This document shows, one piece after another, positions 39,628 through 63,964 of a stretch of 64,000 nucleotides of DNA. Location of the stretch: sequence record MZ501075; one strand, 5' to 3'. The notes below the pieces were generated by a model. It made no database searches and had not been told where the DNA came from. It saw nothing but the letters and a program-made list of their open reading frames with translations. The first letter of the stretch is position 1. Each line of letters starts with the position of its first letter. The position numbers and the translations under genes are program-made. Source of the stretch: Escherichia phage IrisVonRoten.

Positions 39628-40395
39628 TTATTCAGCAGCCGCAGCTTTTGCATCCAGTTTAGCACGCTTAGCGGCACCATCATAGTCCTTAGCAACCAGA
39701 CCACGACGAGACAGCATAGATTTAACACCGCGCTCAGACTTACCAGTTTTCTCAGCGATCTCAGCAACAGTCATGTTAGCCAGATCCAGACCTTCTAAAA
39801 GATCTTCACGAGTTTTAGCACTTGAAGTTTCCTGTACCGGCATAGCAGCGATACGACCTTCACGAAGCAGACTCAGAGCTTTACCACGGATCTGCTTGAT
39901 ATTACGACCGAAGTGAGCAGCGATAGCTTCAATAGTAGCTCCAGCAACAACCTGATTAACAAAGTCAGTTTCTTCATCCGGAGTGAAGGAACGAACAGCA
40001 GCAGCTTTTTCGGTCGGCTTAACAGATGCGGTCATTTCCAGACTCAAGATTTTACCCTGTACCTGCTTAGCACCGAACTGACCACCAGCTACAGCAGCAG
40101 CGATTTCAGCATAAGTATACTGACCAGCATGAGCGTTCAGGAAATCAACCAGTTCAGCTTCCTGCTCAGGAGTCCATGGGGATTTCTGTACTTCGTTAGC
40201 TTTCTGTACTTCGAAACCTTCTTTACGCAGCTTAGAGCCAACAGAGCGAGCGGTAACGTCTTTGCCAGTTTCAGCAGCCAGTTCAGCAGCGATAGCAGCT
40301 ACTTGTTCTTGAGAGATTACAGCAACACCCAGAGCAGTGGCTTTTGCTTTCAGAGACTCGGTTACACCTTCTACGTTCCAGTTCAGTTTAGACAT
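39628..40395 (-). CDS. DNA-binding protein with three HTH-like repeats (T5 D5-like)
   Basis: 255 aa; three repeats of pattern E-IAxxxG..........LxxxGL; strongly optimal codon usage. Confidence 0.45.
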   Translation of the reverse strand: MSKLNWNVEGVTESLKAKATALGVAVISQEQVAAIAAELAAETGKDVTARSVGSKLRKEGFEVQKANEVQKSPWTPEQEAELVDFLNAHAGQYTYAEIAAAVAGGQFGAKQVQGKILSLEMTASVKPTEKAAAVRSFTPDEETDFVNQVVAGATIEAIAAHFGRNIKQIRGKALSLLREGRIAAMPVQETSSAKTREDLLEGLDLANMTVAEIAEKTGKSERGVKSMLSRRGLVAKDYDGAAKRAKLDAKAAAAE

Positions 40396-41167
40396 TATTA
40401 TTTTTCTCCAATAGTTCTTTAATCGACAGGATTTCTATCCCATTCGTTTCGGCTTTCTTATAAGATGAGGAAGAACGCTTCGATTCATCCTCACAGATTA
40501 GGTATTTGACGTCTTTGGTAACGGATTTCTTAACCGTATATCCTAGACCTTCTAAATAGTTTGTTGCATCCGTTCTATTTGCAAAATCTTGCAAAGATCC
40601 GGTAATACATACCGTTATTCCGTTTGGTTGGGCTACTAGACCATCAGTGATGATGACCTCAGCTTTAGCACCTTTAATACCAGTTGTGAATTTCCACGGT
40701 AATTCGATAACATCCTTGCCTTGTGGGGAATTTAGCCAGGCTTTATAATTTTCTCCAGCTCTGCCATCAGCTCTCACATCTTGAAAACTGGTGCAATTTT
40801 GGGACAATTTCTTTGCTGCAACCTCTCCGATTAGAGGGATTCCTAAAGAACCGAGAACTGAACCAAAGTCAATGTCTCCGCGAACTTTATTATTTAATTC
40901 GCTAATTAACTTAGCGGCAACCTTGCTACCCACGACTCTAACCAAATCTTCTTCGGTTAGGTAAAATAGTTCTGAAATCTTCGTCAGCTCCAGCTTCTCA
41001 ATAGTTTTTGGGCCAAAGCCCTTTAACTTCATTTTTGTACAGAAGTTCTCAATTAACTTACTTGATTGCGCTGGACAGTTGGACTTATTACGACAGAATA
41101 ATTGTCCGTTGACAAGATCTAGTTTAGAACCACAAGAGGGACATTGTGTTGGAATTTCGATTTTCAT
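40388..41167 (-). CDS. NAD-dependent DNA ligase, C-terminal subunit (Zn-finger/HhH/BRCT part)
   Basis: ~259 aa from ATG 41167; CPSCGSKL..C zinc finger, helix-hairpin-helix segments, C-terminal BRCT-like region. Confidence 0.7.
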   Translation of the reverse strand: MKIEIPTQCPSCGSKLDLVNGQLFCRNKSNCPAQSSKLIENFCTKMKLKGFGPKTIEKLELTKISELFYLTEEDLVRVVGSKVAAKLISELNNKVRGDIDFGSVLGSLGIPLIGEVAAKKLSQNCTSFQDVRADGRAGENYKAWLNSPQGKDVIELPWKFTTGIKGAKAEVIITDGLVAQPNGITVCITGSLQDFANRTDATNYLEGLGYTVKKSVTKDVKYLICEDESKRSSSSYKKAETNGIEILSIKELLEKNNNV

Positions 41168-41197
41168 CAAATTTCTTCCTTATCAATTTATATAAAT

Positions 41198-41369: not shown

Positions 41370-42344
41370 TTAATCGTATACTCGCTCTACTATGCACGGG
41401 ATTACACCACCAGCACGAATCACTCGAATCTGGCAACCGATCTCTAGATCAAGAGAGTTAATATAATCAACGTTATTAAGAGTCGCTTTAACAATTGTAG
41501 CATCATCAATAATTACCGGTTCGAAATAACCAACTGGAGTTACTTTACCAGAAGCCCCTACCTGCCATTCAACTTTAGTAAGAGTTGTAATCTCGCCTTC
41601 TTCATCCTCTTTAATAGCGAATGCTCCACGAGGGAATTTATTAGTCCAGCCTTCGCGGAAGAATTTGTTGTTGTCATTAATACGAACAACTTTACCGTCC
41701 GTTGGAATCCATTTAAAGAAGGAACGCACATTAACAACTGTTAAGAAGTTCTCATTCTCTAGCCAAAGCATATCTTTTAAATATGCTTCTGTAATACCCA
41801 CAGATTCAGCAGAACATTGGATACCATAAGCAACAAAGATTAAACCACCTTCCCCAATACGTTGTACGAAATCATCGCTATCTTTGAGGTTAATAGCACC
41901 AGAGGCAAAGTTACGTTTATTTTCTACTTCTTTTGTAATTAGAACTTCACCAGTGATTTGAGTAGGTACTTTTTGGGAAATCTTTTTAGGAATGTTCAGC
42001 AATCTTACGTTGCTTGTGACATCATTCCCCAGAATACCATTACCACGAGTTAGTGCTTGAACAAATTCACCGTTAATATATAACAGAGAAATTGCACAAC
42101 CATCTAACTTATCGGTTTCCACCTGACCTAAAGGATTGAAGGGTGGTTTATCACCACGGTTATAGTAAACTTTCTGTAAAGAATACATACGATATAGATG
42201 TGGAATATCACCCTTAGGCCCGATCTCTTCCTCTAACGGGAAGCGTTTTACCAGGCAATCATACTCCTCATCAGAGATTAAAGACATGCCTTGATAATAT
42301 GCTTCTTGACAACGCTTAATAAAGCCTTTTACATTATTCATCAT
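41370..42344 (-). CDS. NAD-dependent DNA ligase, N-terminal adenylation subunit
   Basis: 324 aa; adenylation motif TDKLDGCAISL (KxDG), OB-fold region; ends with stop 199 bp upstream of the C-terminal subunit start. Confidence 0.7.
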   Translation of the reverse strand: MMNNVKGFIKRCQEAYYQGMSLISDEEYDCLVKRFPLEEEIGPKGDIPHLYRMYSLQKVYYNRGDKPPFNPLGQVETDKLDGCAISLLYINGEFVQALTRGNGILGNDVTSNVRLLNIPKKISQKVPTQITGEVLITKEVENKRNFASGAINLKDSDDFVQRIGEGGLIFVAYGIQCSAESVGITEAYLKDMLWLENENFLTVVNVRSFFKWIPTDGKVVRINDNNKFFREGWTNKFPRGAFAIKEDEEGEITTLTKVEWQVGASGKVTPVGYFEPVIIDDATIVKATLNNVDYINSLDLEIGCQIRVIRAGGVIPCIVERVYD

Positions 42345-48352: not shown

Positions 48353-48853
48353 AACAATACTCCTGTGTTGGAAATGAAATAAGTTTTCTTTAGGACTATT
48401 CAGAAAGAATAGAACAACTGTTACTGTCAATTTCTCAACAAATTAATTGCAAATACTGAAGTGGGGTGGCAACTTCCACTTTCACGCTGCGCTGCTGCCT
48501 CATTATATCGCACAAATCCTTGAGGATGGCCGCTAAGCCAGATTTGCTCACCTAATGCTTCATATACTAGCTCATACTAGATGCAATATAACTTACAGAA
48601 TCACGTCTCGGTAGTTTTTCACTCCTCCCATCTCACTTCACAACCACCTCATACTAGGTTGCTTCGAGGCCTTACCAGGGTTCCTATGGGACGCAGATCG
48701 CTAAGTATTCTATTAACTATTTGTTTAAAAACTAACACGTAACAGTTAAAACAACCCTTAATGGGGCAGCCTAACTGTTCCGTATCGCGGATTGTAAACA
48801 AGAAAAATTAGTAAAACCAATTTTTACTAATGTCTCTCAATTCAATATAAATA

Positions 48854-48881
48854 TTATATCAAGATTTTGAGTATCATGCAA
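48854..48881 (-). promoter_or_regulatory. T5 early-type promoter preceding an ORF-free ~500-nt region
   Basis: minus-sense TTGCAT-N16-TATAAT with conserved downstream ATTTATATTGAATTGAGAGA. Confidence 0.4.
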
Positions 48882-48918
48882 GTAAAATTTTCCGGATGGT
48901 GCTATCAGTGTCTTTGAG

Positions 48919-48945
48919 TACAGAGAAAACCGAGCCAAAATGACT
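48919..48945 (-). terminator. putative terminator (minus strand)
   Basis: minus-sense AACCGAG-9nt-CTCGGTT followed by TTCTCTG. Confidence 0.4.
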
Positions 48946-48957
48946 CGGTTATACGGA

Positions 48958-49152
48958 TTAATCATAAAAAAGACCACGAATAGTATTAGCAAATTTAAGT
49001 ATAATAGCGCGGTTTGAGCTACTTAACTTTTTAATATCGAAAGTGGGATCAGTCAAATATCTCGCCATAAATTTTACTTGTTTAGCGGAAAGTTGACCCT
49101 TATTCCACTTTTTAATTTTACCATAACATACCCAATATTCTTTATTCATCAT
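48958..49152 (-). CDS. hypothetical small protein
   Basis: 64-aa ORF. Confidence 0.3.
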   Translation of the reverse strand: MMNKEYWVCYGKIKKWNKGQLSAKQVKFMARYLTDPTFDIKKLSSSNRAIILKFANTIRGLFYD

Positions 49153-49534
49153 TTAGTCCCGGAACATAGATTCCAACACGATTTAATTGTTCTTTAGCTT
49201 CTTTGAGAATACCTGGAGTGTACTCCCAAATATCATCTTCCACCTGTAAAAGATGGGGCGAACAACCGTCACCAGGCACACGACATATGGCCAAACCACG
49301 TGGATGGAACAAAGAGAAATTTAGTGCAACAATTAAACCCATAGCAGACAATTCATTCCAATCCAATTCCCATTCCCTAGCGTAGCCTGATAGGAAAACA
49401 CCAACACAGGGATCATCTATTTGCTGCTCTGGAAAAGTGAAGGAGGCTTGTCTTACCCCCAACCAACGTTGTAGCAGCTTCTCCGCACGCTTCACCAAAC
49501 TAGGATCAATCTGACGCCAATATACTTGTTTCAT
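49142..49534 (-). CDS. hypothetical protein, tandem paralog A
   Basis: 130 aa; shares MGL[IV]xALN[FY]xLF.P and G[IY]x[VI]PGL motifs with the adjacent ORF 49543-49971. Confidence 0.4.
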   Translation of the reverse strand: MKQVYWRQIDPSLVKRAEKLLQRWLGVRQASFTFPEQQIDDPCVGVFLSGYAREWELDWNELSAMGLIVALNFSLFHPRGLAICRVPGDGCSPHLLQVEDDIWEYTPGILKEAKEQLNRVGIYVPGLNDE

Positions 49535-49542
49535 TGTGCCCC

Positions 49543-49971
49543 TTAGGCAGTTAAACCCGGAATTTGATAACCAAAACGACGAAGTTTTTGGATACCATCA
49601 TTTACTTCTTCCGGTGAGTAAGACCAACCGTAATGTTCATTAATTTGAAAGCCTGGAGATTCACTGGTTTTATAATTAACAACAATACGGTGTTTATTGG
49701 GCATAAATAGCTTATAGTTTAATGCAAAAACCAAGCCCATTTCATCTAACTCTTTCCAGCCGACAATCTCTTCAAGACCATCCTCTACCTGCACAATTAA
49801 ACCAATACAGGGAGCTTCTTCAATCTCACCTTTAAAAGCAAAGGAGATTTCATTATTCTCACACCATATTTTCAGAGCATTAATAGCCTCATTGTACAGG
49901 TTGTCTGGAAGAGTACGCCAAAAATTAACCAATATTGGGTTAGCTTCTTTAGAGAATACATTATTGAACAT
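49543..49971 (-). CDS. hypothetical protein, tandem paralog B
   Basis: 142 aa; alignable with ORF 49142-49534 over ~90 residues. Confidence 0.4.
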   Translation of the reverse strand: MFNNVFSKEANPILVNFWRTLPDNLYNEAINALKIWCENNEISFAFKGEIEEAPCIGLIVQVEDGLEEIVGWKELDEMGLVFALNYKLFMPNKHRIVVNYKTSESPGFQINEHYGWSYSPEEVNDGIQKLRRFGYQIPGLTA

Positions 49972-49973
49972 AT

Positions 49974-50480
49974 TTACACCTTAAATTGTTGTAGGGCTTT
50001 ACACATTTCAAGATCTGGACTAAATTCTAACATATAGCTAACAGCTTTTAAATCTTGAAGATTTATTCCAGTTCTACCGTTGACTATAACCGTTGGATAC
50101 TGGTACATCATAGCACCAGCGTCATCCAGCACACACCAATGTTTGAGCTTATGCTTTTCAACAAAGCGAAGAACAGAATTACCCCTAGATAGCCCACCAC
50201 CAGTAAAATCCGTTGTACCAAGAAAACGATCGATAAGATCTAATCCGGTCATAATCTGAACGTTCTCCATCTCATTCCTAACAGAGAACCATGAAGATAC
50301 CCCAACAATCATTATTGGAGAAGGACTAATAAAGTCCTGAAAAGCCTTGAGAAGCGGTTTAAAAACCCAGTCACTTCCAAAGAAAATCTTTTCATCATCA
50401 GGTGCATGGTGATGGGAGATGCTCGAGTTGAGCACCCCATCAATATCTAGAAAAATAATTGGAGTATTACTTATTTCCAT
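49974..50480 (-). CDS. HAD-superfamily phosphatase-like protein
   Basis: 168 aa; N-terminal IIFLDIDGVLN (HAD motif I DxDGx). Confidence 0.45.
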   Translation of the reverse strand: MEISNTPIIFLDIDGVLNSSISHHHAPDDEKIFFGSDWVFKPLLKAFQDFISPSPIMIVGVSSWFSVRNEMENVQIMTGLDLIDRFLGTTDFTGGGLSRGNSVLRFVEKHKLKHWCVLDDAGAMMYQYPTVIVNGRTGINLQDLKAVSYMLEFSPDLEMCKALQQFKV

Positions 50481-50649
50481 TTTTGTTCCTTTCTAAGAAC
50501 GTATCATACTCAACTGTATCAACATATATGACACCATAGTCATCGGATTTATAGTCCATTTCCCATAGCTCACATCGATAGCACCAACTACCATCCGCCC
50601 ATACAAATATATCATCGGGATGTGTATATACAGATTTAACTATGGACAT
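50467..50649 (-). CDS. hypothetical small protein
   Basis: 60-aa ORF bridging the HAD and Sir2-like genes with overlaps. Confidence 0.25.
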   Translation of the reverse strand: MSIVKSVYTHPDDIFVWADGSWCYRCELWEMDYKSDDYGVIYVDTVEYDTFLERNKNGNK

Positions 50650-51464
50650 ATCTGTTTCCCCGGCATATAAGGTCTACCCTCTAGATGAGCTTCCACACGA
50701 GCAATAAAACCAGGGTCACTGAAAGCATCTACCGCACCTTTACTCCAGTAAGGAATACCACGATCTTCCAGTTGGTACATATCACTACGAGTCATACCTT
50801 GATAGCCTGGTTCCGCCGCTAAGGCACTATCGTAGTAGTTAACTACCATAAGTTTCGCAGCAGTCCGATTAAGAACAGGGAATAATTCCCAGTAGAAGTT
50901 AATTACTTGGTTAGAGCAACCAACCACCACAATCATATCTTGACTGGTAATACCATCAAAAACATTGTACATCTCAGCGTATGCTGGAGCACACTCCCCA
51001 AAGAAGATTACATTAGGTTTAACCCATTTATAATCATCAGGGTCAATAGAGCTATACCCAACATCAATAACTCGTTTATTACTACTATTGTAGCTATCAG
51101 CTACAACAACCTCTTTTAAATACCCGTGAATGTGCAGAATGTCACTATGTGGAACGCCAGCACGCTCAATAAGGTCATCAACGTTGGTAGTTAAGTTTAC
51201 TACTTGACCCGGATATTTCTTATACCATTCACCAATACGCAGGTGTGCAAGATTGGGCTCAACAGTTTCTAACTCTTCACGACGTTTGTTGTAAAACATG
51301 TGGGTTTTATGATAAAAGTTACCACGAAAGGCATGAATATTACATACCTCTTCTAAGTCATAATCATCCCACAATGCTTTACCACTAGCAGTATCAGTAC
51401 GAAAAGCTCGTACACCACTTTCAACACTCAAACCCGCACCGCTAATAATAATTAATCTACGCAC
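50640..51464 (-). CDS. Sir2-family (sirtuin-like) NAD-binding protein lacking the zinc-ribbon cysteines
   Basis: 274 aa; ISGAGLSVESGVRAFR, NLTTNVDDLIERAG, HIHG, VIFFGE, VVGCSNQV align with the canonical sirtuin motifs (as in CobB); no Cys pairs where the Zn module normally sits. Confidence 0.65.
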   Translation of the reverse strand: MRRLIIISGAGLSVESGVRAFRTDTASGKALWDDYDLEEVCNIHAFRGNFYHKTHMFYNKRREELETVEPNLAHLRIGEWYKKYPGQVVNLTTNVDDLIERAGVPHSDILHIHGYLKEVVVADSYNSSNKRVIDVGYSSIDPDDYKWVKPNVIFFGECAPAYAEMYNVFDGITSQDMIVVVGCSNQVINFYWELFPVLNRTAAKLMVVNYYDSALAAEPGYQGMTRSDMYQLEDRGIPYWSKGAVDAFSDPGFIARVEAHLEGRPYMPGKQICP

Positions 51465-51658
51465 TATACGATTCCTTGCTTAAATCCTTCGATAATATTT
51501 CGGAGTAAAATTGCTTCCTCCGGGCGTACCTTTTCTTGTTTAATAAGCATATCCAATCTAGCAATACAAGTAGCTACACCAGCATTATAACCAAAGTTCC
51601 ACTGCTCAATAAGCATGTTTTCTGGATTACTTTTTAGATTCTGATTCAAGAAGTCCAT
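51464..51658 (-). CDS. hypothetical small protein
   Basis: 64-aa ORF. Confidence 0.25.
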   Translation of the reverse strand: MDFLNQNLKSNPENMLIEQWNFGYNAGVATCIARLDMLIKQEKVRPEEAILLRNIIEGFKQGIV

Positions 51659-51830
51659 AAAGTTTCTCCTCTAGTTCCATAACACGATTTTCATAAGAAG
51701 CACGCAACTTTTCAATTGCCAGTGCACGCACTGTAACCTCATTAGAATTAATAGCTAGTTGGGCCAGATCTTCTGTTTCCATACGTCCGTTGTAAATTAA
51801 GCGATATTTAAGATGTTTTACGTTTTTCAT
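51627..51830 (-). CDS. hypothetical small protein
   Basis: 67-aa ORF. Confidence 0.25.
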   Translation of the reverse strand: MKNVKHLKYRLIYNGRMETEDLAQLAINSNEVTVRALAIEKLRASYENRVMELEEKLYGLLESESKK

Positions 51831-51895
51831 TCTTGTTCCTCAAACATTTCAATTTCTGCATTAGCAATAGAAAGGGCGGGCTCAGATAAGCACAA

Positions 51896-52039
51896 TCACG
51901 CCCTAAGATCAATCTTCTCTTCGTCCATCCAAGTATTTACTAAACATAATTTAGTTATACCCTCACGGAGAATGGAACCATATGCCCCAGAATCCATAAT
52001 AAAATAGATACGTTCTTTATCTACCTTGTGAACTCTCAT
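51896..52039 (-). CDS. small ORF (47 aa) directly behind an early promoter, not in the ORF track
   Basis: hand translation MRVHKVDKERIYFIMDSGAYGSILREGITKLCLVNTWMDEEKIDLRA; strong RBS GAGAGGAGAAAG; coordinates approximate to within a few nt. Confidence 0.35.
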   Translation of the reverse strand: MRVHKVDKERIYFIMDSGAYGSILREGITKLCLVNTWMDEEKIDLRA

Positions 52040-52096: not shown

Positions 52097-52138
52097 ATAA
52101 AATAAAAGCCAGGTCGACTAGCAACCCGGCTGATTAGC

Positions 52139-54013
52139 TTATTTAGCTCGAATATCCTGATGTTTCACCCTGCCCATAACCTCGTGCTGTTTGCCGGGGT
52201 TAAATGGACGAGCACCTGGATTTCCAAGATACCCACAAACTCGACGAGTTACTTCAAGAGTTTCGGGGTCATGATTACCACAGATAGGGCACTTAAACCC
52301 ATCTTCGGATGCTACTGTTTCACCTAAGAATCCACATTTACCGCAAGAATCCACTGGAGTATTAATACCGAAGTAATGAACTTTACTAGCAGCATAATTA
52401 ATAACCCATTCCAGTGCATCTGGGAATCGTTTCATATCTGGTAGTTCTACATAGGAAATACACCCACCAGAAGCAATAGGAGTAAAGTTAGATTCATAAT
52501 CAAATTTCACGTTAGGAGCAACTTTACGTTCCACATCAAGGTGGTGAGAGTTGGTGTAGTATCCTTTGGACAGAATATCTTCATGCTCCGGGAAATATTC
52601 ACGGTCTAGACGACAAAAGCGATCACATAGGGACTCTGATGGTGTAGCATACAGGCTATAACCTAACTTAGTCTCTTCCTTCTTCTGATCGACCCTATCC
52701 CGCATGTACTGCAATACACGCTGAACAAACTTGATGCAGGTCTCAGACATTGTATCTACATCTTTGCCAAACATGAACTGTAGCATTTCATGGCAACCAA
52801 TATACCCCAGAGATACAGAAGCACGGTTATAGAAATGATCGAATACATATTCATCCGGCCCTAAGCGTAGTCCAAAGGCTCCTGACATATAGAGGATGGG
52901 TGCGGCTTTAGCTTGAATGTACTTTAAGCGATCAACTCTCCACTCCAATGCTTTTAACGCTGTATCCACACGTAGCTCGAGCAAATCAAAGAATAGATCA
53001 ATATTCCCTTCAGCTTCGATAGCAATTCTAGGCAGGTTTACAGAAACAACACCTAAGTTATTACGACCTGCAGTTTCACCATCTTCTGTAGCAGCCAGGA
53101 ATGAACGGCAGCCCATAGAAACTTTATAGTCACCAGTAACTTCCACAACCTTATCGTAGCTGATATAGTCGGGATACATACGTTCAGCAGTACATTTCAT
53201 AGCTAACTTCTTGACGTCATAATTAACATCTCCTGGCTTCATATTTACGCCATCACGCAGAACAAACACCAGTTTCGGGAAGATAGCTGTACGTTTATTG
53301 ATACCTAAACCATCCATGCGTACTTTCAGTATTGCTTTCTGTACTAGACGTGCTTCCCAAGAAGTTCCTAGACCAAAACCAAAGGTAATAAATGGACTCT
53401 GACCATTAGAGTTGAACATGGTATTGATTTCATATTCTAAACCCTGACAAGCGTCATAGACTTCTTTTTCAGTCATCTCCGTAGCCATTACGGATGCTTT
53501 GGCTTCATCCTTAGTCCAACGTTTTGCAAACGCATGATTTTTGTCATAGGATTTACGAACATAAGGGGCTAATACTTCATCAAGGCGATCTACAGAAGTA
53601 CCACCATACTGATGGGAGCTAACCTGAGTGATAATCTGAGCAGTAATAGCCGCCGCAGTAGTGATAGAGTTTGGAGTGCTAATTTCAGCATTACCAACCT
53701 TCATACCATTCTTCAACATATCTTCCAAAGCTACCAGACAACAGTTAGTCATACCTAATGCAGCATAATCAGCATCATGGAAATGAATATCTCCAATCAT
53801 ATGAGCATTTCGAATCTGAATTGGCATTTCTTCTAGAATCAGATATTTACTTAACTCCCCTGCAAGCATATCCCTTTGTGTAGGGAAACGCTCAGAGGGT
53901 TTATTCGCATTATTAAAGAGAAGCTCTTCATCAGCAGAACCCTCAATAATTTCTTTGCAGTTTCTAATCAAGGACTGCATTTCCTTGTATTTTAGTTCAT
54001 CATTGCGATTCAT
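52139..54013 (-). CDS. nrdD: anaerobic ribonucleoside-triphosphate reductase
   Basis: 624 aa; C-terminal glycyl-radical motif RRVCGYLG and Zn-site cysteines (CGKCG, CPICG). Confidence 0.9.
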   Translation of the reverse strand: MNRNDELKYKEMQSLIRNCKEIIEGSADEELLFNNANKPSERFPTQRDMLAGELSKYLILEEMPIQIRNAHMIGDIHFHDADYAALGMTNCCLVALEDMLKNGMKVGNAEISTPNSITTAAAITAQIITQVSSHQYGGTSVDRLDEVLAPYVRKSYDKNHAFAKRWTKDEAKASVMATEMTEKEVYDACQGLEYEINTMFNSNGQSPFITFGFGLGTSWEARLVQKAILKVRMDGLGINKRTAIFPKLVFVLRDGVNMKPGDVNYDVKKLAMKCTAERMYPDYISYDKVVEVTGDYKVSMGCRSFLAATEDGETAGRNNLGVVSVNLPRIAIEAEGNIDLFFDLLELRVDTALKALEWRVDRLKYIQAKAAPILYMSGAFGLRLGPDEYVFDHFYNRASVSLGYIGCHEMLQFMFGKDVDTMSETCIKFVQRVLQYMRDRVDQKKEETKLGYSLYATPSESLCDRFCRLDREYFPEHEDILSKGYYTNSHHLDVERKVAPNVKFDYESNFTPIASGGCISYVELPDMKRFPDALEWVINYAASKVHYFGINTPVDSCGKCGFLGETVASEDGFKCPICGNHDPETLEVTRRVCGYLGNPGARPFNPGKQHEVMGRVKHQDIRAK

Positions 54014-54043
54014 TATACTCTCCTTCTCTAACTAAGACTACTA

Positions 54044-54072
54044 TTATAGCTTATTCAAGGGCAAATGTCAAT
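54044..54072 (-). promoter_or_regulatory. consensus sigma70 promoter for nrdD
   Basis: minus-sense TTGACA-N17-TATAAT, then RBS GAGAAGGAGAG before the nrdD ATG. Confidence 0.6.
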
Positions 54073-61359: not shown

Positions 61360-61644
61360 ATGCGAATTTATAACTCAAATTCATTAGGATTTAAACCGTT
61401 GAGAAAACGTGCACAATCACCTCGTCAAATAAGAAAGGCTAATATTGGTGAGCCAGAAACACGTCTTCCACCTCCTCCAGAACAACGTTTAGTTTATCTG
61501 GATGAAGAATTAGCTGAACGCGAAGGAAAAGCTCAAGAAGAGATTGAGCGTAAGAAAATGTGTACTGCTCCAGCCTACTCCAAAGGGGCTTATCAGTATA
61601 TCTATACAGCCGAAGAGGCTAAAGATGCGGGGCGTAAAAAATGA
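61360..61644 (+). CDS. hypothetical protein (basic, Pro-rich centre)
   Basis: 94-aa ORF with RBS GAGGAGGG. Confidence 0.3.
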   Translation: MRIYNSNSLGFKPLRKRAQSPRQIRKANIGEPETRLPPPPEQRLVYLDEELAEREGKAQEEIERKKMCTAPAYSKGAYQYIYTAEEAKDAGRKK

Positions 61645-62090
61645 AGATTACTGAATTTAAAGGTGCTTATAGTTTCTTATCTAACTTTTATTTATCACCA
61701 ATTACTTTCGAATATCTAAATGAAATATGGCATGCTGATACTGTAGAACATGCTTTTCAGGCTATGAAATCCGACCAAAAAGATGATGTAGCTCATGTAC
61801 TACGCTCCCTAAATGCAGGAGTTGCTAAACGTAGAGGACGTAAATTAACTCTACGCTCTGACTGGGATAAGGTAAAAGATGATGTAATGCTAGAGCTTTT
61901 ACGGTTAAAGTTTGCAATCCCTGATTTGAGAGATAAACTGTTAGCAACAGAAAATGCAACTTTGATTGAAGGAAATACCTGGGGAGATACATATTGGGGT
62001 GTTTGCCGAGGCATCGGGGATAATACTTTAGGAGTTCTTTTGATGCAGGTAAGGTCTGAAATTAAAAGAAGCTTACAGTTAATAAATTAA
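61641..62090 (+). CDS. NADAR/YbiA-family protein (DUF1768-like)
   Basis: 149 aa; FLSNFY, EHAFQAMK, LLATENATLIEGNTWGDTYWG, NTLGVLLMQVR align with YbiA-type motifs. Confidence 0.6.
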   Translation: MKITEFKGAYSFLSNFYLSPITFEYLNEIWHADTVEHAFQAMKSDQKDDVAHVLRSLNAGVAKRRGRKLTLRSDWDKVKDDVMLELLRLKFAIPDLRDKLLATENATLIEGNTWGDTYWGVCRGIGDNTLGVLLMQVRSEIKRSLQLIN

Positions 62091-63262: not shown

Positions 63263-63964
63263 ATGAAAGTAAAACCATTTGGTATGCTAGATATTGAATC
63301 TCTAGGAACTCCAGGAGATTGTGGTACTACTCATATCGCAATGCCTTCTTTCGCTTTTGTGGCTATGCACGGAATTGATAAAGACCCTGATCTAGTGTTT
63401 GTTACTTTGGATGTACAAGATCAGCTTAACTCTGGAGCTAAAGTTACGGCATCTACTCTAGCATTCTGGATGGATCAAGCTAAGAATAGCCCATCAGCTC
63501 TACATATTATGGAAGCTATGAAGGAATGCAATCCAAAGCTGATTGCTTTTCAAGATGGTAAACATCACTGTACTAATAAGCTAGGCTCTAACTATGCAGC
63601 TTATTCTATGGCTAAAAACATTATGGAGTTGGCTCTAGGTGAGAATGCTTTGTATTATGGCAATGGCCCAGAGTTTGATATGACTATCTACTCTGCAAAC
63701 ACTTTCCATGCTGGAACCAATGAAGAAATAGTTCCGTGGAAATTCTGGAACTTAGGCAATGTTCGATCTCTCCGCAATCTCTGGATGCAGGCTGGTTATA
63801 GTTACAAAGACCTAGAAGCAGAGGGAATTAGCTGGGCAAAAGCTAAGATGGAGAAGATGGACACTATTCGTTATGGGATCTATCCGGTTAAGCATGATCC
63901 AGCATTCGATGCCTTAGTTGAGAGCTATTGTGTTGCAGCTATGGTCGAAAAAATCAAAATTTGA
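63263..63964 (+). CDS. putative DEDDh-type 3'-5' exonuclease (DnaQ-like fold)
   Basis: 233 aa; N-terminal FGMLDIESLG (D-x-E) and C-terminal HDPAFDALVESY (H-x4-D) resemble Exo I and Exo III motifs. Confidence 0.4.
   Translation: MKVKPFGMLDIESLGTPGDCGTTHIAMPSFAFVAMHGIDKDPDLVFVTLDVQDQLNSGAKVTASTLAFWMDQAKNSPSALHIMEAMKECNPKLIAFQDGKHHCTNKLGSNYAAYSMAKNIMELALGENALYYGNGPEFDMTIYSANTFHAGTNEEIVPWKFWNLGNVRSLRNLWMQAGYSYKDLEAEGISWAKAKMEKMDTIRYGIYPVKHDPAFDALVESYCVAAMVEKIKI

Follow-up and report, generated by a model that had tools for sequence, protein, structure and literature searches.

A phage-encoded Sir2-family protein without zinc ligands in a conserved gene cluster of a T5-like Escherichia phage, and its possible part in RNA-end processing

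The sirtuin gene described here lies on the minus strand, at positions 50640-51464, of a 64,000-nt stretch of DNA from Escherichia phage IrisVonRoten (record MZ501075; this whole stretch is the window, and all coordinates are window positions). Its product of 274 residues is a confirmed Sir2-family protein, with similarity far beyond chance, and it looks, from its motifs and predicted fold, like a catalytically competent, NAD+-consuming (NAD, nicotinamide adenine dinucleotide) enzyme. It belongs to a phage-specific clade that derives from class III (CobB/SIRT5-like) sirtuins and has lost the four zinc cysteines. As its role we tentatively favour, after Iyer et al. 2022 (PMC9503650), a Tpt1-like processing of RNA ends together with a HAD_SAK_2 phosphatase partner. 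The gene, its zinc-less state and the RNA-repair hypothesis have already been published, and the window is a confirmation rather than a discovery.

The SIR2 profile of Pfam (PF02146) matched the protein with 86 bits against a cut-off of 24 (E=3.8e-24), the match spanning residues 9-187 and positions 1-178 of the 180 in the profile, and SIR2 was the sole family returned by a Pfam scan at E<=1. PHROG 2162, labelled 'Sir2', matched at E=4.5e-120, and the best solved relative by sequence was E. coli CobB (1s5p, E=9e-18). In parallel, an AlphaFold model made from a 71-sequence alignment reached a predicted local distance difference test (pLDDT) value of 90.6 and a predicted template modelling score (pTM) of 0.88. 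Searching the PDB with this model through Foldseek returned only sirtuins among the top 50 matches, with 1s5p the best (E=2.8e-17, template modelling score 0.84) and class III CobB, Sir2Af1 and SIRT5 as the leading structures (E from about 1e-17 to 1e-13). On all seven NCBIfam CobB models the protein scored far under the cut-off, the best value being 100.6 against 243 bits, which sets it apart from the housekeeping deacylases. An earlier note on this DNA had described a Sir2-family open reading frame (ORF) of these bounds and this length, naming no strand, and had proposed a profile search as a check; the ORF exists, on the minus strand, and the Pfam score places its product in the SIR2 superfamily.

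The GTG start codon is credible because an AAGGA Shine-Dalgarno sequence precedes it by about 8 nt, it overlaps the stop of the upstream ORF by one base (TAGTG), and the resulting N-terminus, MRRLI, is common to the 71 homologs of the close-clade alignment, which are 55-93% identical to the window protein. Across these homologs G9, A10, G11, S13, F21, R22, N94, D96, H113, F155, E157, G182, S184 and N209 are invariant. The GAGxS, (T)QNxD, HG, FGE and GxS motifs are all present, the glutamine of TQNxD being an invariant threonine (TTNVD), and the four motifs listed before, GAGLSVESGVRAFR, TTNVDDLIERAG, HIHG and VIFFGE, were all found in the protein. His113 and Asn94, the catalytic residues on which the earlier note had made the assignment depend, are intact. 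The protein is shown to be of the sirtuin fold, with purifying selection at every residue required for NAD+ binding and cleavage of the nicotinamide bond.

With CobB and SIRT5 the protein shares the Rossmann and small-domain fold, the catalytic histidine, the NxD and FGE motifs and the Tyr-x-x-Arg pair for acyl carboxylates; Tyr58 and Arg61 align with CobB Y92 and R95 and are invariant in the close clade. It differs from them in having no zinc ligands, TTNVD for TQNID, VIN for VYP, a cysteine at the position of CobB A76 and about 60 extra C-terminal residues. CobB A76, which stands opposite Cys41, has been altered in engineered CobB variants, according to the PDB titles of 6rxm, 6rxq and 6rxs among the Foldseek matches. 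The departure at VxP is fixed as VI(N/D)F, the proline being asparagine or aspartate in all 71 homologs; the close clade as a whole departs from canonical sirtuins by the missing Cys4, by TTNVD for TQNxD and by VI(N/D)F for VxP.

Only four cysteines are found in the protein (residues 41, 158, 183 and 273), and none falls within the 37 residues separating HG and FFGE, where CobB has its Cys-rich zinc site. The length of this insert is kept (clade median 36), and it is predicted by AlphaFold as a beta hairpin, with strands at 114-122 and 130-134 and pLDDT of 90-97. Every member of the close clade has 0-2 cysteines in the module (71/71) and Cys4 occurs nowhere. The earlier description of a protein lacking the zinc ribbon was therefore right about the metal ligands, which are gone, and wrong about the small beta module itself, which is retained.

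A wider clade was collected by an exhaustive profile search, which gave 164 clusters (50% identity) at E<=1e-30; the counts that follow refer to the best 150 of the 164 cluster representatives plus the window protein (151 sequences). Fewer than four module cysteines were present in 62/151 and at least four in 89/151, and all 17 of the 17 best-scoring matches belonged to the former group. Threonine at position 93 tracks the zinc-less state, being found in 38 of the 62 zinc-less sequences and in 6 of the 89 with at least four cysteines, while Cys41 (125/151), Tyr58 (143/151), Arg61 (111/151) and His113 (150/151) are shared by both groups. Since Thr93 covaries with the zinc-less state while these four residues span both groups, the loss of zinc looks secondary, within an already distinct wider clade.

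The sirtuin gene sits within a compact cluster of nine ORFs, all on the minus strand and bracketed by terminator-like hairpins (Table 1). Directly downstream, a small ORF (orf60) shares 10 nt with the end of the sirtuin gene and 14 nt with the start of a HAD phosphatase gene, and this overlapping arrangement is the most telling clue to function. The phosphatase matches PF18143, HAD_SAK_2 ('HAD domain in Swiss Army Knife RNA repair proteins'), with 73.9 bits against a cut-off of 27.5 (E=2.1e-20), and the sirtuin neighbours scanned with Pfam gave no assignments other than HAD_SAK_2, DUF7415 and the origin-binding protein. The order nrdD - small ORFs - sir2 - orf60 - HAD - two DUF7415 genes - origin-binding protein is common to T5-like phages and the window, and the T5.102/PHROG 2162 sirtuins of EC100, SP15 and JLBYU40 are close relatives (94-99.6% identical to the window protein). 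The differences are insubstantial: T5 has two orf60 copies (T5.103/T5.104) where the window has one, and some T5-like relatives carry an additional HNH endonuclease after the cluster. The orf60 product may be a partner or regulator of the sirtuin.

Iyer, Burroughs, Anantharaman & Aravind (2022; PMC9503650) place most viral sirtuins in a clade of their own, for which they predict an RNA-repair role analogous to that of KptA, and they remark that this clade is without a Macro partner. They distinguish three types of gene neighbourhood, the third, in the T5-like phage SP15, joining the sirtuin to a Swiss-army-knife HAD phosphatase. The window has the same arrangement, a sirtuin beside a HAD phosphatase, no Macro domain and a T5-like genome, and its HAD and DUF7415 proteins are 98.2% and 96% identical to those of SP15. 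The second type, with RNA ligase, cREC, kinase, MazG and calcineurin-like genes, was seen here for orthologs at 48-63% identity. Two of the three published neighbourhood types have thus been independently reproduced. The conserved linkage to RNA-end-processing genes that goes with that clade is likewise present, HAD_SAK_2 being joined through overlapping ORFs and kept down to 51% sirtuin identity, and Macro domains were found neither among the cluster ORFs scanned with Pfam nor in the locus of Mydovirus KB57, so that the adjacent Macro-domain gene of the macrodomain-linked sirtuins (SirTM) is not a feature of the window cluster.

We surveyed the neighbourhoods of more distant relatives in 59 IMG/VR and four GenBank loci, whose ORFs were searched with the proteins of the window and of Mydovirus KB57. 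The order sirtuin - orf60 - HAD - two DUF7415 genes persists in T5-like lineages with sirtuins of just 51-52% identity (L041, L043, L045, L046), and also in L035. Klebsiella T5-like phages (48% identity; L056/L057) retain orf60, directly 3' of the sirtuin, and DUF7415, the HAD gene not being found there. In 7-11-like phages (L036/L038) orf60 likewise lies directly 3' of the sirtuin, and a metallophosphoesterase follows at about +2.1-2.3 kb. HAD_SAK recurs at +3.0 kb in a distant lineage of 44% identity (L060). In the Vequintavirinae (14 loci) an RNA ligase (RNA_lig_T4_1) lies within 3.8 kb of the sirtuin ortholog on the same strand, and the KB57 locus contains, by Pfam, Metallophos (calcineurin-like), RNA_lig_T4_1, cREC_REC (cyclic-phosphate processing), an AAA_33 kinase and MazG, which is a heal-and-seal kit complete but for a remover of 2'-phosphate. 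A further group of phages of about 145-150 kb, with contigs up to about 153 kb (L039, L042, L044, L047, L048, L050, L052, L054) has the sirtuin beside a different conserved gene set, in which a DNA methyltransferase-like gene accompanies phrogs 8514, 9509, 2141 (DUF7275/DUF7277) and 16551. These phrogs have no assigned function and, DUF7275/DUF7277 apart, no Pfam family, and none of the neighbours could be recognised as an RNA-end enzyme. Such neighbours neither support nor contradict RNA repair, and the arrangement would make a fourth type beyond the three in the accessible text of PMC9503650. As far as the literature shows, the covariation of zinc loss with the change from TQNxD to TTNVD and the recurrence of orf60 as a partner are small additions to published knowledge.

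The chemistry of sirtuins matches the two-step course of Tpt1, step for step. In Tpt1, a phosphate attacks C1'' of NAD+, after which O2'' of the ADP-ribose transesterifies (PMC6333775, PMC6097658). Tpt1/KptA is an unrelated family, the window protein giving SIR2 only in the Pfam scan at E<=1, and what is proposed is a functional analogy through a common NAD+-dependent two-step transfer, with release of nicotinamide and then the reaction of the ADP-ribose 2''-OH (PMC6333775, PMC6097658), and not membership. On this model the sirtuin and its translationally coupled HAD_SAK_2 phosphatase would clean up phosphorylated RNA ends, such as may be left by metal-independent RNases of the host, for example anticodon nucleases cutting tRNA. 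By analogy with Tpt1/KptA, an RNA 2'-phosphate would take the place of the acyl-lysine oxygen and attack C1'' of NAD+, releasing nicotinamide, and the invariant Tyr58/Arg61 pair would hold the phosphate. In SIRT5 the equivalent Tyr/Arg pair binds the carboxylate of succinyl-lysine. The HAD enzyme might act before this step, opening or trimming cyclic or terminal phosphates, or after it, breaking down the ADP-ribose phosphate by-product, and the sealing step would be left to a host ligase in T5-like phages, while the Vequintavirinae would use the ligase and kinase that they encode themselves.

This Tpt1-like model is favoured for the gene contexts of RNA-end healing, the parallel chemistry and the invariant anion-binding Tyr/Arg pair beside the catalytic histidine. 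A more specific form of it, which is possible though we hold it with more doubt, is that the zinc-less TTNVD subclade, HAD_SAK and orf60 constitute a nucleic-acid-directed sirtuin system. Its sirtuin would be the first to act on the 2'- or terminal phosphate of RNA, replacing the non-homologous Tpt1/KptA and letting T5-like phages reverse the cleavage of tRNA or other RNA by defence nucleases of the host. If true, RNA repair would extend sirtuin chemistry from acyl-lysine to nucleic-acid phosphates, and phages of a family known for many tRNA genes would have one more means of countering defences that cleave tRNA and RNA.

Several points weigh against a role on RNA. To our knowledge no sirtuin acts on RNA, and a literature search found no experimental or biochemical characterisation of any member of the clade. 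The 'RNA repair' role of HAD_SAK_2 is a computational prediction itself. By sequence and by modelled fold the protein is nearest to protein deacylases, with the full catalytic set kept, and an acidic protein (pI, the isoelectric point, 5.4) is atypical of RNA-binding enzymes. In T5-like loci no RNA ligase or polynucleotide kinase adjoins the sirtuin, and no tRNA genes lie within the window; the tRNA block of the relative EC100 begins about 15 kb past the sirtuin. Among the loci under 90% identity, 13 of 39 have no recognisable RNA-end enzyme within 10 kb, so that about a third of the diverged loci in the present survey differ in this from the clade as portrayed by Iyer et al. The synteny of a whole family amounts to roughly one evolutionary observation, which leaves only about 4-5 independent associations, counted without a background control. 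The fusion partners in the wider clade (150 representatives) are only LRR, WG repeats and tandem SIR2, and are uninformative on RNA. The view of the earlier note that the activity is undecidable from sequence is upheld.

The most serious rival, which we hold only somewhat less probable, is a class III protein lysine deacylase (deacetylase or desuccinylase/demalonylase) like CobB or SIRT5, which early in infection would remove acyl groups from proteins of the host or the phage, for example activating acetyl-CoA synthetase or retuning metabolism and transcription, with packing or salt bridges substituting for the zinc as proposed for a Vibrio phage Sir2 (PMC5107563). Sequence and structure both place class III deacylases nearest to the protein. 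The His, Asn and Asp of catalysis, the phenylalanine of FGE and the Tyr-x-x-Arg pair are all invariant, and the small module that helps to form the peptide cleft is kept in the model. The role is, moreover, assumed in hundreds of GenBank and PHROG annotations and has been argued from a homology model (PMC5107563). Set against this, the protein scores far under every curated CobB cut-off, asparagine or aspartate replaces the VxP proline throughout the 71 close homologs, and the Gln of TQNxD is Thr; its gene context is one of RNA-end and nucleotide enzymes and not of acyl metabolism, the host already encodes a CobB, and no phage member has ever been shown to have the activity. A zinc-free deacylase would mean that the fold can do without its zinc site, and would give phages a tool for rewriting host protein acylation.

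Some sirtuins are chiefly ADP-ribosyltransferases. It is correspondingly conceivable, if improbable, that the protein is an ADP-ribosyltransferase, or an enzyme of NAD+ or ADP-ribose metabolites, serving host takeover or counter-defence; its target could be a host protein or nucleic acid, or it could use up or transform an immune signal made from NAD, and the HAD and NADAR proteins would process the products. Sirtuins of that kind (reviewed in PMC9503650), the NADAR genes in the window (61641-62090) and near the KB57 sirtuin, and the dispensability of the gene on a defence-poor laboratory host fit such a role, which has to contend with the missing Macro-domain neighbour in the window cluster and KB57 locus, the invariant catalytic histidine of deacylation-type chemistry, the lack of similarity to defence or toxin SIR2 profiles, and data that here point to no target. 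A plain NADase that tunes or depletes host NAD+, like ThsA or DSR, was the reading stressed by the earlier note and is by far the least probable. The zinc is absent as in defence SIR2 domains (ThsA, DSR1/2, SIR2-HerA and SIR2-pAgo are likewise NAD-binding members of the sirtuin superfamily without the zinc module) and the phage has other NAD-dependent functions, but the window protein is a phage-encoded sirtuin of the canonical PF02146 type, that family only, with class III relatives and no defence-type partner among the Pfam-scanned neighbours, and its substrate tunnel still has the residues of transfer-type sirtuins. A defence-type SIR2 was rejected, with 0/5027 PADLOC models matching at E<=1. 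Depletion would also harm the phage, because its own ligase uses NAD+ and related phages carry NAD-salvage genes by the sirtuin. What stands of the earlier note is thus a phage Sir2-family protein with intact His113 and Asn94 and no zinc ligands; its link to zinc-less NADases of defence systems is not supported.

In this region the window shares 96% identity with Escherichia phage EC100 and 99.9% with a fragment from a Salmonella phage, and its annotated relatives are Tequintavirus, Demerecviridae, which makes the window a Tequintavirus-type, T5-like genome. Homologs of the sirtuin were detected by tblastn in 992 phage records (T5-like, Vequintavirinae, Klebsiella, Vibrio KVP40-like and jumbo phages), and in hundreds of phage records the relatives are annotated 'Sir2-like / NAD-dependent deacetylase'. 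HAD was found in 497 records and DUF7415 in 522; phyletic co-occurrence was discounted as independent evidence, being mostly vertical inheritance within Demerecviridae. Skliros et al. (2016) had already described the Sir2/CobB of KVP40-like phages as without zinc ligands and listed T5 among the carriers (PMC5107563). The proteins of these Vibrio phages (phiSt2, phiGrn1, nt-1), which share the absence of zinc ligands (PMC5107563), are about 40% identical over about 75% of the protein and form a distant subgroup, with HAD_SAK, orf60 and RNA ligase not detected within 10 kb in nt-1. The gene T5.102 corresponds to phrog_2162 (PMC11879866, supplementary file 8), and the one experimental result found comes from a CRISPRi-ART screen of T5, in which the knock-down of T5.102-T5.105 was scored 'Not Fit', with no fitness defect on the laboratory host (PMC11879866, supplementary file 16). 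This result is weak because the same screen also failed to flag the origin-binding gene (PMC11879866, supplementary file 16), and the lack of a defect fits a conditional accessory function in repair or counter-defence.

Part of the annotation of this locus appears to be confused. PHROG 18062, labelled 'Sir2 (NAD-dependent deacetylase)', matches the C-terminal half of the HAD_SAK_2 protein at E=2.4e-58, and its match to the true sirtuin is marginal (E=1.7e-6). The mislabel probably explains the double 'Sir2' in many RefSeq T5-like genomes, where the HAD gene is called Sir2.

Table 1. Coordinates of the sirtuin gene, its motifs and the surrounding cluster (window positions; aa, amino acids)
Feature	Position	Strand	Description
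Sirtuin gene	50640..51464	-	274 aa, GTG start; ortholog of T5 gene T5.102
GAGLS, residues 9-13	51426..51440	-	NAD-binding Rossmann motif; G9, A10, G11, S13 invariant
Cys41	51342..51344	-	aligns with CobB A76; invariant in 71/71 close homologs, 125/151 wider-clade representatives
YNKRR, residues 58-62	51279..51293	-	class III Tyr-x-x-Arg anion-binding pair; Y58, R61, R62 invariant
TTNVD, residues 92-96	51177..51191	-	variant of TQN(I/V)D; T93 invariant in close clade; N94, D96 invariant
H113-G114	51123..51128	-	catalytic histidine motif; invariant; 150/151 in wider clade
Small-module insert, residues 115-151	51012..51122	-	in place of Cys4 zinc module; clade motif D-V-G-Y
FFGE, residues 154-157	50994..51005	-	substrate-tunnel and NAD motif; F154, F155, E157 invariant
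VINF, residues 187-190	50895..50906	-	aligned to CobB V219-Y220-P221 substrate loop (CobB numbering from PMC5107563)
nrdD, anaerobic ribonucleotide reductase	52139..54013		
Terminator-like hairpin	52107..52131	-	10 bp, 6 GC, T-run; just after nrdD; upstream cluster edge
Three small upstream ORFs	51464..52039	-	64, 67, 47 aa; phrogs 5827, 5236, 20147; no function assigned
orf60	50467..50649	-	60 aa, phrog_5116, no function assigned; motif W-x-DG-S/T-W-C-Y
HAD_SAK_2 phosphatase	49974..50480	-	168 aa, DxDGV motif; PF18143
DUF7415 protein b	49543..49971	-	142 aa; co-conserved partner, no known fold
DUF7415 protein a	49142..49534	-	130 aa; paralog of b, 31% identity
Last small cluster ORF	48958..49152	-	64 aa, phrog_29527
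Terminator-like hairpin	48928..48950	-	10 bp; just after last cluster ORF; downstream cluster edge

Around the cluster, a perfect 12/12 sigma-70 consensus promoter (TTGACA-17-TATAAT) was found at 54043-54071 on the minus strand, just upstream of nrdD. On the other side, about 530 nt (48430-48958) separate the origin-binding gene from the cluster and hold short ORFs only, and in the relative JLBYU40 the matching place is occupied by an HNH endonuclease gene, which looks like a presence/absence polymorphism of a homing endonuclease.

The sirtuin was placed by the earlier note in an early module near an NAD-dependent ligase, and both statements hold. Genes for replication and nucleotide metabolism surround the sirtuin gene, in a part of this T5-like genome that we take to correspond to the T5 early region, and a split NAD-dependent DNA ligase is found 8.3 kb away on the same, minus, strand, with the adenylation and OB domains at 41370-42344 and the HhH and BRCT domains at 40388-41170, about 200 nt apart. 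EC100 likewise carries two coding sequences annotated 'DNA ligase'. The NADAR-domain protein, which belongs to an ADP-ribose-processing family, is encoded on the other strand (plus) 10 kb from the sirtuin and matches PF08719 with 78.7 bits. In Mydovirus KB57 a NADAR gene lies 5.9 kb from the sirtuin, beside genes of NAD salvage (NAMPT and phosphoribosyl pyrophosphate synthase), and the phage may carry a wider NAD/ADP-ribose toolkit. A further plus-strand ORF at 63263-63964 contains a 3'-5' exoribonuclease domain of the Rv2179c-like type, which scores 34 bits where the cut-off is 27, and its syntenic counterpart in EC100 is annotated 'metallopeptidase'.

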